Origin: Candidatus Roizmanbacteria bacterium
GTDB lineage: Bacteria; Patescibacteriota; Microgenomatia; UBA1406
Direction: 5' to 3'
Length of the DNA: 64,000 nucleotides
Assembly (NCBI GenBank): GCA_024654535.1
Contig: JANLHL010000016.1
Span: 96,626 to 160,625 of the forward strand
Shown in pieces: positions 13,516 to 14,014 of this stretch (positions are counted from its first letter, which is position 1; the number at the start of each line of letters is the position of its first letter). The notes under the pieces were generated by a model. The model was not told the DNA's origin, ran no database searches, and saw nothing but the letters and a program-made list of their open reading frames with translations. The position numbers and the translations under genes were made by a program.

Positions 13516-13562
13516 ATAAGCTACAAATTCATACGTCATATTTGTATGTGAAAGCTTATTTT
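13516..13562 (+). terminator. putative intrinsic terminator after paralog B
   Basis: Outer stem ATAAGCT(13516-13522)/AGCTTAT(13553-13559) with inner ACAAAT/ATTTGT pairing, followed by a T-run. Confidence 0.4.
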
Positions 13563-13628
13563 GCGTGGTAAAATAGAGAGTAGCTTGATTGAAGTAACTA
13601 CTTAATTTGGGGGATCGTCTAATGGTAG
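13561..13628 (+). repeat. left copy of perfect 68-bp direct repeat (GIY-YIG ORF 3' tail + 2 nt + tRNA-Gln nt 1-21)
   Basis: Identical by eye to 13894-13961, offset exactly 333 bp. This copy is a dead fragment with no ORF body upstream and no tRNA body downstream. Confidence 0.85.
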
Positions 13629-13671
13629 TTGCCTCATCGGCAACCTGCCGAAGAGGCAGGGACAGAGGCCT

Positions 13672-13938
13672 ATGTATTATACATACGTACTTATAAGCAC
13701 GAAGAACAAGAGATTATATGTTGGCTCAACAGATAATCTAAAGAGGAGAATTAAAGAACACAATGATGGTATTGGTGGAGTTTATACTCGCATAAACAGA
13801 CCATTTACACTACTGTTCTACGAAGCATATATTTCACAATTGGACGCAAAGAAACAGGAAAAGTTTTATAAAACTGGCTATGGTAGAGAAGTATTGCGTG
13901 GTAAAATAGAGAGTAGCTTGATTGAAGTAACTACTTAA
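13672..13938 (+). CDS. GIY-YIG nuclease superfamily protein (small UPF0213/YhbQ-like type)
   Basis: 'YYTYVLISTKNKRLYVGSTDNLKRRIKEHN' matches GIY...YVG...R...H of the GIY-YIG fold. 88 aa. Confidence 0.8.
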   Translation: MYYTYVLISTKNKRLYVGSTDNLKRRIKEHNDGIGGVYTRINRPFTLLFYEAYISQLDAKKQEKFYKTGYGREVLRGKIESSLIEVTT

Positions 13939-13961
13939 TTTGGGGGATCGTCTAATGGTAG
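13894..13961 (+). repeat. right copy of perfect 68-bp direct repeat
   Basis: Covers the last 45 nt of the GIY-YIG ORF, 2 nt, and the first 21 nt of the functional tRNA-Gln. Confidence 0.85.
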
Positions 13962-14014
13962 GACAGCGGCCTTTGGAGCCGTCAGTCGGGGTTCGAATCC
14001 CTGTCCCCCAGCCA
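13941..14014 (+). tRNA. tRNA-Gln (anticodon TTG), CCA encoded
   Basis: Acceptor TGGGGGA/TCCCCCA (U1-A72) and anticodon stem-loop AGCGG-CCTTTGGA-GCCGT region containing TTG. T-arm is GGGGTTCGAATCCC, with discriminator G followed by CCA. Confidence 0.9.

Follow-up and report, generated by a model that had tools for sequence, protein, structure and literature searches.

A GIY-YIG nuclease gene and a covarying double hairpin within duplicated tRNA 5' sequences of CPR bacteria: a candidate selfish cassette compared with phage SegB

Introduction

SegB is a GIY-YIG endonuclease that cleaves in the tRNA clusters of T-even phages and drives a recombination-dependent tandem amplification of a tRNA-plus-segB unit, which proceeds by way of microhomology that the 5' end of a tRNA gene shares with segB's 3' end (PMC2330249; PMC13096335). 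This amplification has been shown to depend on the GIY-YIG active site. Group I introns are a further kind of insertion described in bacterial tRNA genes, those of Patescibacteria included, and the report describing them does not mention GIY-YIG genes, tRNA-Gln, or hairpins (PMC13011429).

Here, we analyze a cassette in a 64,000-nucleotide stretch of a Candidatus Roizmanbacteria contig (JANLHL010000016.1, hereafter the window), in which a small GIY-YIG gene and a double hairpin adjoin tRNA-Gln. Phage SegB at tRNA loci is the closest known case. The initial annotation regarded a link between UPF0213-type proteins and tRNA genes as unreported. This stands insofar as the searchable literature contained no paper linking small GIY-YIG/UPF0213 genes, tRNA 5' fragments, or the hairpin in CPR, but a precedent for GIY-YIG nuclease genes at tRNA loci does exist in phage SegB. 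The cassette is widespread in CPR/Patescibacteria and apparently undescribed so far.

Results

Organization of the cassette

The features of the locus are as follows.

13561-13628, + strand: left repeat copy, identical to 13894-13961
13561-13605: first part of the left copy, a non-coding duplicate of the ORF's final 45 nt, TAA included
13608-13628: second part of the left copy, tRNA-Gln nt 1-21, after a 2-nt spacer
13628-13660, + strand: double hairpin, placed in the D-loop at the junction of tRNA nt 21 with nt 22
13661-13674, + strand: tRNA-like copy, resumed nt 22-35, GACAGAGGCCTATG, 12/14 identical to 13962-13975
13672-13938, + strand: GIY-YIG nuclease-domain-only ORF, 88 aa, UPF0213/Slx1-like (Pfam PF01541)
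13894-13961, + strand: right repeat copy, made up of the authentic ORF 3' end, a 2-nt spacer, and the first 21 nt of the functional tRNA
13894-13938: ORF part of the right copy, last 45 nt including the stop codon
13941-13961: tRNA part of the right copy, nt 1-21
13941-14014, + strand: intact tRNA-Gln(UUG) (ARAGORN; Rfam RF00005)
14732-14774, + strand: diverged second tRNA-Gln 3' end (CAGCCA) with downstream flank

Direct comparison of the two repeat copies showed 100% identity over 68 nt at a start-to-start offset of 333, bearing out the perfect direct repeat of the initial annotation, and the 88-aa ORF, the two hairpins, and tRNA-Gln(UUG) were all found as first described. The tRNA scored 62.6 bits in Rfam (threshold 29), was called identically by ARAGORN, and starts 2 nt after the stop codon of the ORF. 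The left tRNA copy had been taken for a dead fragment stopping at nt 21, which proved wrong, as nt 22-35 resume past the hairpins (GACAGAGGCCTATG, where the functional tRNA has GACAGCGGCCTTTG; 12 of 14 positions match), so that the ATG of the ORF sits exactly on the anticodon TTG. In this copy, TTG is changed to ATG, the start codon of the ORF, and a C-to-A change creates a GAGG Shine-Dalgarno-like motif, while TTG-to-ATG is the only change present in the tRNA-like copies of two related lineages (L111 and L100). The tRNA fragment extends to about the anticodon loop in other lineages too (L041, L004, L022). The layout comprises, in order, tRNA nt 1-21, the double hairpin, the resumed tRNA sequence from nt 22 to about nt 35, the ORF, and a complete tRNA, and the duplicated segment reaches 68 nt in the window's lineage because the 3' end of the ORF is also included.

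The left copy contains TGGTAAAAT (13566-13574), which may be read as resembling an extended -10 promoter element; it was not flagged by a consensus scan requiring a -35 element, and the scan for sigma-70 promoters and terminators gave no result above shuffle expectation. A terminator had been placed upstream of the left repeat, where the consensus scan found none and only an AT-rich imperfect inverted repeat is present. The second tRNA-Gln 3' end lies 723 nt downstream with 82% identity over 39 nt (local alignment score 46; the best of 300 shuffles reached 26) and probably records an older event, either a duplication or an insertion, at this tRNA. A 177-aa ORF (14146-14679) sits between the two 3'-end copies. 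Searches of the 64-kb window by tblastn, blastn-short, and a hairpin scan revealed no ORF, repeat, or hairpin pair of this kind beyond those listed. Another old duplication nearby is represented by the paralogous ORFs 11299-12108 and 12736-13512, which share 30% identity.

Age of the repeat

The perfect identity of the repeat had been attributed to a recent event, and the related genomes contradict this. The same repeat, 67-69 nt long and with the same left boundary, is present in two related Roizmanbacteria lineages (L111; L100-L104), differing from that of the window at 4 positions in L111 and at about 10 positions plus indels in L100, and every one of these differences is found in both copies of each genome. 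Because lineage substitutions occur in both copies despite a synonymous divergence of the ORF of 0.2 to more than 1 between the window and its relatives (dS up to 1.4-1.7), this sequence pattern indicates that the 68-nt repeat is an old duplication, homogenized continually by concerted evolution. The cassette is present in all three lineages examined at the orthologous TGT-linked locus, which yielded neither an empty site nor a copy-number variant. When relatives were sought via tgt, the contig of the 89%-identity relative stopped 54 nt past tgt, and the 81% and 78% relatives either carried the cassette (L111) or had contigs that end too early; via the downstream CN-hydrolase, the 77%-identity relatives were not syntenic on the tRNA side.

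The GIY-YIG protein

The 88-aa protein matched Pfam PF01541 over residues 1-71 (E = 2.4e-17, 63.4 bits, cut-off 22.6), which places it in the GIY-YIG superfamily at the curated threshold, and the Pfam scan detected the catalytic domain alone. In 32 homologs, Y3, Y5, Y16, G18, R26, H30, N31, E63, and E73 do not vary; the protein has the two motif tyrosines, the arginine, and the metal-binding glutamate of the catalytic site, and the conserved residues presumably correspond to I-TevI Y6, Y17, R27, and E75. The best sequence matches in the PDB were the UPF0213 entries 1ywl (E = 2.5e-6) and 1zg2 (E = 3.2e-6), followed by Slx1 (8e-4). The protein fits the UPF0213/Slx1-like single-domain type (about 90-100 aa, no extra domain) and does not show the Seg-type arrangement of a nuclease joined to a sequence-specific DNA-binding domain. 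In NCBIfam, only a sub-threshold match to TIGR01453, "group I intron endonuclease," was obtained (26 bits, cut-off 56). The homologs, nearly all 80-130 aa in length, form 273 clusters at 50% identity (E <= 1e-10). With dN/dS values of 0.06-0.12 for the window against L111 and L100, the ORF is under strong purifying selection, at a dN/dS of about 0.1. A phage origin was considered and is ruled against by IMG/VR, whose viral contigs contain no close relatives (best 37% identity). The tRNA fragments and hairpins also explain the spurious N- and C-terminal extensions of the called GIY-YIG proteins P0002, P0008, P0039, and P0024.

The double hairpin

The double hairpin (G-TTGCC/TCATC/GGCAA-C, then CTGCC/GAAGA/GGCAG) pairs 13628-13633 with 13639-13644 in the first hairpin and 13645-13649 with 13655-13659 in the second, and homologous pairs are about 31-33 nt long. 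Across 54 homologous copies, 99.5% of cells were paired, changes on both sides were found in 7 of the 11 pairs, and none of 500 shuffles was equally good, so the predicted two-hairpin fold is supported by covariation. Folding the window sequence by itself gives a single long hairpin as the minimum-free-energy structure, yet the covariation of this alternative was no better than that of shuffles.

The hairpins are not confined to the cassette. Besides occurring, with compensatory changes, upstream of about 65 of 80 GIY-YIG ORFs, between tRNA fragment and ORF, the homologous pair was detected in at least 120 metagenome stretches, where, among the matches listed, it is set in fragments of many tRNA types and in long open frames. 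The GIY-YIG ORF was absent from 55 of the 71 scorable metagenome copies among these matches, in which ORF-less forms (fragment, hairpin, tRNA) involve Trp, Thr, Gly, Pro, Arg, Met, and Gln. The orientation of the pair always matches that of the neighboring tRNA among the matches listed for the metagenome sample, and within long reading frames the pair is apparently in frame. The hairpin pair is a dispersed, structurally conserved CPR mini-element. It shares with REP/RAYT-like and RPE-like elements the many dispersed genic and intergenic palindrome copies; the gene associated with it is GIY-YIG rather than a cognate HUH (Y1) transposase.

Distribution and turnover in CPR genomes

The family was surveyed at 80 CPR loci retrieved through the protein. 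A same-strand tRNA lies 0-100 nt 3' of the ORF in 73 of them, and its identity is Gln (CTG or TTG) in about 61 of the 73, the other partners being Gly(CCC/TCC), Ile(GAT), Pro(TGG/CGG), Ser(GCT), and Glu(TTC). Small UPF0213-type GIY-YIG proteins are genuinely linked to tRNA genes. Upstream, the first 21 nt of the neighboring tRNA recur with 21/21 identity in 25 loci and with at least 19/21 in 34, and the locus of each tRNA target carries a fragment of its own tRNA. Dozens of unrelated genomes share the position of the break, which is tRNA 21/22, or 10/11 where the tRNA is Gly or Ile. The geometry noted in the window, with hairpins, ORF, and tRNA nt 1-21 at D-loop position 21/22, thus turned out to be the hallmark of a large family. 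Nt 1-21 are kept identical to the tRNA, with nt 22-35 decayed in most loci; in many loci, the fragment has diverged and the ORF is intact. When two peptide patterns were run against 185,579 species genomes, 144 matches were confirmed, a patchy distribution.

Several loci show signs of mobility or turnover. One metagenome-assembled genome has two cassettes (L028 and L058), L076 contains two 360-bp units that are 100% identical, and in L001 and L032 an older, divergent GIY-YIG gene precedes the current copy. The tandem loci L076, L001, and L032 agree with the initial proposal that an ORF was already present upstream or that tandem duplication was followed by deletion. L057 and L012 have, past a second hairpin pair, a 3' fragment that is the counterpart of the upstream 5' fragment, from which it follows that a resident tRNA was split by an insert with its own tRNA. 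L050 and L059 combine a TGCGGG-type fragment with a TGGGAG-type functional tRNA, while the ortholog L049 has TGCGGG in both, and by this comparison an apparent tRNA replacement is seen. Copies that are truncated or have no start codon occur at L043, L075, and L078, and contigs of relatives frequently end at the cassette. Insertion of hairpin, ORF, and tRNA nt 1-21 at 21/22 does not by itself fit all loci; insertion of hairpin, ORF, whole tRNA, and hairpin at 21/22 fits L057 and L012 and likewise not all others. L003 fits neither of these simple models cleanly, and the downstream 3' tRNA fragment is missing from most loci. The protein P0038 was found in 24 contigs with a single shared context, so that this protein gives no evidence of very recent jumps.

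Discussion

Origin and maintenance of the cassette

Our main reading, to which we assign a probability of roughly 0.55, is a long-resident, selfish or formerly selfish CPR cassette, in which a GIY-YIG gene and a double hairpin occupy a duplicated tRNA 5' part next to an intact tRNA. The nuclease would nick or cut the tRNA-gene or hairpin DNA in the D-arm; as it is Slx1/UPF0213-like, it would probably recognize DNA structure rather than sequence. Recombination repair would then insert a cassette copy, amplify the cassette, or homogenize the flanking repeats. The 68-nt state may derive from a two-unit tandem like that of L076, most of the first unit having been deleted. Transcription of the ORF may pass through the tRNA fragment and hairpin leader, and the tRNA may be produced by read-through or from a promoter within the 3' end of the ORF and be released by RNase P. 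Against a selfish cassette, the constraint on the ORF at one chromosomal position, with saturated dS, fits a host-useful gene equally well, and the 88-aa protein lacks a DNA-binding domain from which sequence specificity could come. The absence of empty sites and copy-number variants from the TGT-linked locus, and of close relatives from viral contigs as possible vectors, likewise counts against it. The intact adjacent tRNA should also stay a target, so that immunity is not obvious. Moreover, the hairpin pair has local tRNA sequence to its left and right, and 55 of 71 scorable metagenome copies carry no GIY-YIG ORF, so that hairpin and ORF may be separate insertions.

A bolder idea, possible in our view but doubtful, is that the minimal GIY-YIG protein and the 33-nt hairpin pair together make up a new kind of bacterial mobile element with an autonomous/non-autonomous division of roles. 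Being structure-specific, the nuclease would act on hairpin or cloverleaf DNA that is extruded at tRNA genes, cutting it in the D-arm at 21/22, 10/11, or 12/13, and such cuts would initiate insertion of a hairpin element or an ORF-bearing cassette, plus a compensating tRNA segment or whole tRNA. Its non-autonomous progeny would be the ORF-less hairpins in broken tRNAs of many types and the in-frame copies in protein genes, and continued cutting would drive the concerted evolution of the flanking repeats.

The selection on the ORF could also reflect a domesticated, host-beneficial nuclease that is inherited vertically together with the highly transcribed tRNA genes it serves, for example by resolving R-loops or secondary structures or by processing the co-transcript, with the tRNA fragment and hairpins being a mere 5' leader and promoter region. 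This agrees with the dN/dS of 0.06-0.12 at a dS of up to 1.4-1.7 in one conserved position adjoining tgt, with nearest structural relatives that are structure-specific rather than sequence-specific nucleases, and with an ORF always directly upstream of the tRNA on the same strand, an arrangement that makes co-transcription almost certain. We nevertheless judge it unlikely, given the patchy distribution (144 of 185,579 species genomes), the many tRNA partners, the tandem or serial copies, the degenerate copies and ORF-less derivatives, and the resident tRNAs that were split or replaced; the need for a partial tRNA duplication would also be left unexplained by a host function. Passive rearrangement, that is, tandem duplication then deletion and RecA-mediated gene conversion in which nuclease and hairpins have no role, strikes us as quite improbable. 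Direct repeats of 68 bp at a distance of 333 bp are capable of gene conversion, homogenization requires no special enzyme, and the region has more old duplications (the paralogous ORFs; the tRNA 3' end with its flank). Such events would account for the extra 47 nt and their kept identity but not for the architecture, and recurrence of the same break point and hairpin at different tRNAs in dozens of unrelated genomes would not result from chance duplication.

The covariation of the hairpins raises the further question of whether tRNA nt 1-21, the two hairpins, and the 3' strand of the D-stem together form a functional structured RNA, serving as a leader that controls translation or stability, as a decoy, or as a guide for the nuclease through pairing with tRNA-gene DNA. 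The D-stem is still able to close around the hairpins (GUCU...GGAC), the hairpin orientation always equals that of the neighboring tRNA among the matches listed for the metagenome sample, and nt 1-21 remain identical to the tRNA, with nt 22-35 decayed at most loci. Only a slim chance is given to such an RNA, as DNA hairpins predict covariation equally and the G-U pairs are too few to distinguish the strands. In addition, many loci combine diverged fragments with intact ORFs, the hairpin pair also lies within protein-coding frames, Rfam gives no match, and an 88-aa guided nuclease would be very small. As for the assembly, a repeat that was collapsed or mis-joined is hardly credible: contigs of relatives often stop at the cassette and the L102 repeat contains an N-gap, but at least 12 independent contigs from different samples, studies, and assemblers have the same layout with lineage-specific sequences, and an assembly artifact is therefore excluded.

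If the selfish cassette is real, CPR/Patescibacteria carry unrecognized elements of about 330 bp inside tRNA genes, with tRNA function spared, and the UPF0213/Slx1-type proteins, whose role is unassigned, gain a concrete biological context. The testable substrates would be tRNA-gene DNA around D-loop position 21/22 and the defined double hairpin. The relationship of SegB with tRNA genes would be extended beyond phages to cellular genomes, and the fragmented tRNA loci, pseudo-tRNA fragments, and contig breaks of CPR assemblies would be accounted for in part. In CPR genomes, the hairpin pair may represent an element of the RPE/REP kind, one that enters protein-coding genes too.

Comparison with known systems

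Among solved structures, the UPF0213/YhbQ-type proteins and the Slx1 domain (PDB 1ywl, 1zg2, 7cq2) are the best sequence matches, being single-domain proteins of the same size class, although their identity to the window protein is only moderate; no literature report was found on tRNA-gene linkage, repeat structure, or mobility of these proteins. Intron-encoded GIY-YIG enzymes of the I-TevI type offer another likeness, as the junction of ORF module and tRNA copy falls in the anticodon loop, where tRNA introns classically sit. A group I intron or other known RNA was nevertheless rejected: at the gathering threshold, Rfam detected only the four tRNAs in the window, and about 43 nt separate tRNA nt 21 from the ATG, with no group I ribozyme core. 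Unlike in tRNA group I introns, the interrupted tRNA copy of the cassette has no 3' half directly after the ORF, and a complete tRNA follows instead, so that splicing is unneeded.

With REP/BIME-RAYT and Rickettsia palindromic elements, the hairpin pair has in common its dispersal in RNA genes and long ORFs and its tight linkage to one nuclease gene family. It differs in that the associated enzyme is GIY-YIG rather than an HUH/Y1 transposase, mobilization by the nuclease being hypothetical, in being much shorter than the Rickettsia elements, and in its strong preference for tRNA D-arms. Integrase-type islands likewise insert at tRNA genes, duplicate part of the tRNA, and leave an intact gene, but they duplicate the 3' part whereas the cassette duplicates the 5' part in a unit of only about 330 bp, and the Pfam scan found no recombinase among the neighboring ORFs.

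The comparison with SegB reveals differences as well. SegB is larger, and Seg-type enzymes typically have a DNA-binding region besides the nuclease domain, whereas the CPR protein is an 88-aa, nuclease-domain-only protein of the UPF0213/Slx1 type. The host of the cassette is a CPR bacterial chromosome rather than a phage, and its tRNA copy, split in the D-loop, and its conserved double hairpin are both features not described for SegB. Yet in both systems, a GIY-YIG nuclease gene adjoins tRNA genes on the same strand and tRNA-plus-nuclease units form tandem repeats. The SegB process is recombination-dependent, which we count as a likeness, as recombination probably also acts at the CPR cassette, and the junction homology of SegB, between the 5' end of a tRNA and the 3' end of the nuclease gene, matches the content of the 68-nt repeat in the window.

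Organization of the window locus

The 68-nt direct repeat described in the initial annotation was confirmed (offset 333), as were the 88-aa GIY-YIG ORF, the two hairpins, and the tRNA-Gln next to it, which were all recovered by Pfam, ARAGORN, Rfam, and inspection of the sequence. The features of the locus are as follows.

13561–13628: left repeat copy, identical to 13894–13961
13628–13644 and 13645–13659: two GC-rich hairpins between the repeats
13672–13938: GIY-YIG ORF, 88 aa (Pfam GIY-YIG, E = 2.4e-17)
13894–13961: right repeat copy, consisting of the last 45 nt of the ORF, 2 nt, and nt 1–21 of tRNA-Gln(UUG)
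13941–14014: tRNA-Gln(UUG) (ARAGORN; Rfam 62.6 bits)

The left repeat copy had been read as a tRNA fragment ending at nt 21. Nucleotides 1–21 are present, but the copy does not end there, since it resumes beyond the hairpins as GACAGAGGCCTATG, compared with GACAGCGGCCTTTG in the functional tRNA. The left copy is thus a tRNA 5' half interrupted in the D-loop by a 31–32-nt insert, and the ATG of the GIY-YIG ORF is the former anticodon of this copy. In a fold of the window sequence, the insert still permits closure of the D-stem around it. A terminator placed upstream of the left repeat was not recovered by a consensus scan.

The neighbors of the locus include QueA and Tgt (Pfam), which, along with a protein match at 100% identity (P0001), assign the window to a Candidatus Roizmanbacteria (CPR) genome. 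Two paralogous ORFs of 269 and 258 aa (11299–12108 and 12736–13512; 30% identity, E = 4e-34), which have no Pfam match and no assigned function, sit between tgt and the cassette and are absent at that position in the related loci L100 and L111, which shows that the sequence preceding the cassette varies. On the other side, the final 6 nt of tRNA-Gln, along with ~35 nt of the flank that follows (14009–14052), recur 723 nt further on (14732–14774; ~82% identity, local score 46 against a shuffle maximum of 26), with an unannotated 177-aa ORF (14146–14679) between the two copies. The copy at 14732–14774 was probably left behind by an earlier event at this tRNA-Gln.

Layout and protein of the family

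A homolog alignment scanned against one genome per species yielded 80 loci, all in metagenome-assembled genomes of CPR/Patescibacteria from many classes. A same-strand tRNA gene begins 0–100 nt 3' of the ORF in 73 of them, and in two more the tRNA comes after a second tandem ORF; the remainder are mostly contig ends. The partner is tRNA-Gln (CTG or TTG) in ~61 loci, the others being Gly(CCC/TCC), Ile(GAT), Pro(TGG/CGG), Ser(GCT), and Glu(TTC). Nucleotides 1–21 of the local tRNA are repeated 40–100 nt upstream of the ATG, perfectly in 25 loci and at 19 or more of the 21 positions in 34. Immediately 3' of this fragment, ~65 of the 80 loci carry a hairpin element with the consensus gTCGCC-TCWTC-GGCGAC-C-CGCC-GAWGA-GGCGG, after which the next nucleotides of the tRNA resume (GACA in Gln, TACAC in Gly, etc.), running on to the anticodon loop in several loci, including L041, L004, and L022. 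The element lies at position 10/11 in Gly and Ile loci instead of 21/22, at both positions in L017, in tandem in L044, and as nested copies in L028 and L049. The geometry first noted in the window, with hairpins, ORF, and tRNA nt 1–21 at 21/22, recurs as a family trait across CPR loci.

According to the homolog alignment, the protein is a bare nuclease domain with invariant motif residues; among proteins of solved structure, those closest to it in sequence are UPF0213 proteins and Slx1, a structure-specific endonuclease. Nearly all of the 273 related protein clusters (50% clustering, E ≤ 1e-10) are 80–130 aa long; in longer members the called frame probably extends across the hairpins and tRNA fragment, as it does in the database homologs P0002, P0008, and P0039. 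In these three and P0024, the N-terminal (e.g., VASSATRRKGG) and C-terminal (e.g., ADSESAYPGSSPG) extensions are translated hairpin-pair and tRNA sequence; the extensions are gene-calling artefacts, not real domains. No close relative was found in viral contigs.

Contigs end, or N runs occur, within ~100 nt 3' of the cassette or tRNA in L005, L012, L013, L015–L017, L022, L025, L037, L039, L040, L046, L063, L065, L070, L076, L080, and L102. CPR assemblies thus seem to be interrupted often by the cassette or its repeats, and the reported copy numbers may be too low.

Structure and dispersal of the double hairpin

In a two-hairpin model of 54 distinct copies, 99.5% of the cells are paired, a percentage inflated by the choice of copies with at least 10 of 11 pairs. 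The compensatory changes are free of this inflation: seven of the 11 pairs changed on both sides (28 cells). None of 500 shuffles equaled the two-hairpin model, and slid controls were all far lower. A single long hairpin was rejected as no better than shuffles. The covariation is equally compatible with a role of the hairpins as DNA or as RNA and does not discriminate between them.

A metagenome scan with a degenerate hairpin pattern returned at least 120 stretches, and 85 copies among the matches listed were analyzed. A GIY-YIG ORF comes after the hairpins in 16 of these and is absent in 55, and the available sequence is too short to decide in the other 14. Among these listed matches, many ORF-less copies consist of a tRNA 5' fragment, the hairpins, a few tRNA nucleotides, a spacer, and an intact tRNA (Trp, Thr, Gly(GCC), Pro, Arg(GCG), Met, or Gln), others of an intact tRNA, a spacer, the hairpins, and a tRNA 3' fragment; all nearby tRNAs are on the strand of the hairpin, and some copies lie within long open frames (e.g., 734, 514, and 498 aa). 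The association holds in both directions, since nearly all members of this GIY-YIG subfamily have the hairpins, and about one-fifth of the sampled hairpins have the ORF. However, the two are not one indivisible unit, and the hairpin pair occurs dispersed outside the cassette as well.

The element spans 33 nt, or 11 codons. In the scan loci L143, L145, L146, L157, L163, L173, L177, and L183, it lies inside open reading frames of 348–734 aa and translates as VASSATRRKGG or SRLxGDPPxRR. These copies look like in-frame insertions of a palindromic element in putative protein genes, resembling the Rickettsia palindromic elements.

Indications of turnover in cassettes and tRNAs

L076 carries two 100% identical 360-bp units (tRNA-Glu nt 1–21, hairpins, and ORF) ahead of tRNA-Glu, and L001 and L032 have serial copies, in which the current cassette is preceded by a divergent GIY-YIG gene and a fragment that are both older. 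The 45-nt ORF remnant in the window may most simply be read as the residue of such a tandem. Some family ORFs are cut short or have no start codon, and many contigs end at the cassette.

About 12 loci have a second hairpin pair 3' of the intact tRNA, with (T)GGTAG before it and tRNA nt 22–74 after it. In L057 and L012, this 3' fragment belongs with the upstream 5' fragment and not with the intact tRNA, so that an insert bearing its own tRNA has split a resident tRNA. In L050 and L059, the fragment keeps the TGCGGG acceptor of the ancestral tRNA, still present in the ortholog L049, and the functional tRNA differs in type.

A second, divergent GIY-YIG ORF (29–46% identity to the query) lies 20–560 nt 3' of the same tRNA-Gln in L004, L029, L031, L044, L045, L050, and L075, with no tRNA detected after it, and L008 has a further copy upstream of tRNA-Asn on the opposite strand; several GIY-YIG subfamilies thus cluster at tRNA loci.

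Other broken tRNA arrangements were also observed. Directly downstream of tRNA-Pro(UGG) (48604–48678), a broken second copy of its 3' part (48679–48790) consists of CGTGGGTT, an ~88-nt insert, and CAAGTCCCACCATCCCAACA, the insert containing a GC hairpin (TCCGCC...GGCGGA) as well as an inverted repeat (AACTGACAG...CTGTCAGTT). This is a second case in the window of an intact tRNA beside a partial copy that is interrupted; the split lies in the T-loop here, and no GIY-YIG gene is present. In the scan loci L126 (hairpin at 1215, reverse strand), L128 (680, reverse strand), and L168 (3015), a complete tRNA (Trp, Thr, or Met) is framed by a 13–15-bp inverted repeat, CCCGCACC(A/T)TTTT ... AAAA(T/A)GGTGCGGG, and nested in a pseudo-tRNA of matching type that bears the hairpins. 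The insertion point is near the anticodon loop of the pseudo-tRNA, and its 3' end comes after the insert. The arrangement resembles a distinct kind of cassette that replaces tRNAs. In L002, L012, L021, L030, L058, L059, and L077, the leader and trailer of the intact tRNA after the ORF are complementary over 10–14 bp, lengthening the acceptor stem, possibly as a processing helix or part of a mobile unit; such complementarity is not evident in the window.

Age and concerted evolution of the repeat

Relatives were found through the GIY-YIG protein (P0002, 83% identity; L100–L109) and through Tgt (P0168, 81% identity; L111), and all share the gene order tgt, small reverse-strand ORF, cassette, and tRNA-Gln. 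The perfect repeat is 67 nt with an offset of 333 in L111 and 69 nt with an offset of 334 in the L100 group. Its left boundary, TGC[G/A]TGGTAAAATAG, is identical in the window, L111, and the L100 group, although the flanking sequences before it cannot be aligned. Four positions distinguish the window repeat from that of L111, and ~10 positions plus indels distinguish it from that of L100; every between-lineage difference occurs in both copies of each genome. Over the same divergence, the dS of the ORF is 0.20 (L111) and 1.36 (L100), with dN/dS of 0.12 and 0.07, respectively.

The initial annotation took the perfect identity as a sign of a recent event, which does not hold in view of the shared repeat and boundary and the doubled differences. 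These indicate that the duplication is older than the split of the three lineages and that the repeat copies evolve in concert, either by gene conversion or because units are repeatedly gained and lost. Fragment and tRNA likewise changed in parallel in the orthologous pair L036/L046. The repeat in other loci comprises only 21–22 tRNA nucleotides plus 0–6 nt (18 nt in L053), and the extra 47 nt are specific to the lineage of the window.

Possible origin and comparison with known systems

Homing-like spread is the leading, though unproven, explanation of the cassette. The nuclease may cut or nick structured DNA at the D-arm of the tRNA gene or at the hairpin pair, and recombinational repair would then copy the cassette, amplify units, or convert the flanking repeats. 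An intact tRNA would always be regenerated, as the unit ends in a tRNA 5' segment or carries a whole tRNA. Expression of the ORF probably passes through the fragment-hairpin leader, and the tRNA, only 2 nt after the stop codon, would have to arise by read-through or from a promoter within the ORF end, for which TGGTAAAAT at 13899–13907 (copied at 13566–13574) is a candidate. A domesticated role of the GIY-YIG gene is a serious rival, because no empty site was found at the tgt-linked locus among the window, L111, and L100 group relatives, purifying selection has long maintained the ORF at one fixed position, the intact tRNA beside it shows no evident immunity, and the protein has no DNA-binding domain.

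In the searchable literature, no description was found of small GIY-YIG genes embedded in CPR tRNA genes or of the hairpin element, and a recent survey of tRNA introns in Patescibacteria mentions neither. The best-studied parallel to homing-like spread of the cassette is SegB, a GIY-YIG nuclease at tRNAs. It cleaves in the T4 tRNA cluster (PMC2330249), and in T6 it causes a tRNA-Tyr-plus-segB unit to be amplified in tandem through recombination, using microhomology of the tRNA 5' end with the segB 3' end (PMC13096335). The CPR cassette is of a known kind, in which a free-standing gene for a GIY-YIG endonuclease is linked to tRNA genes; its minimal protein, split tRNA copy, conserved double hairpin, and flanking repeats that evolve in concert are new.
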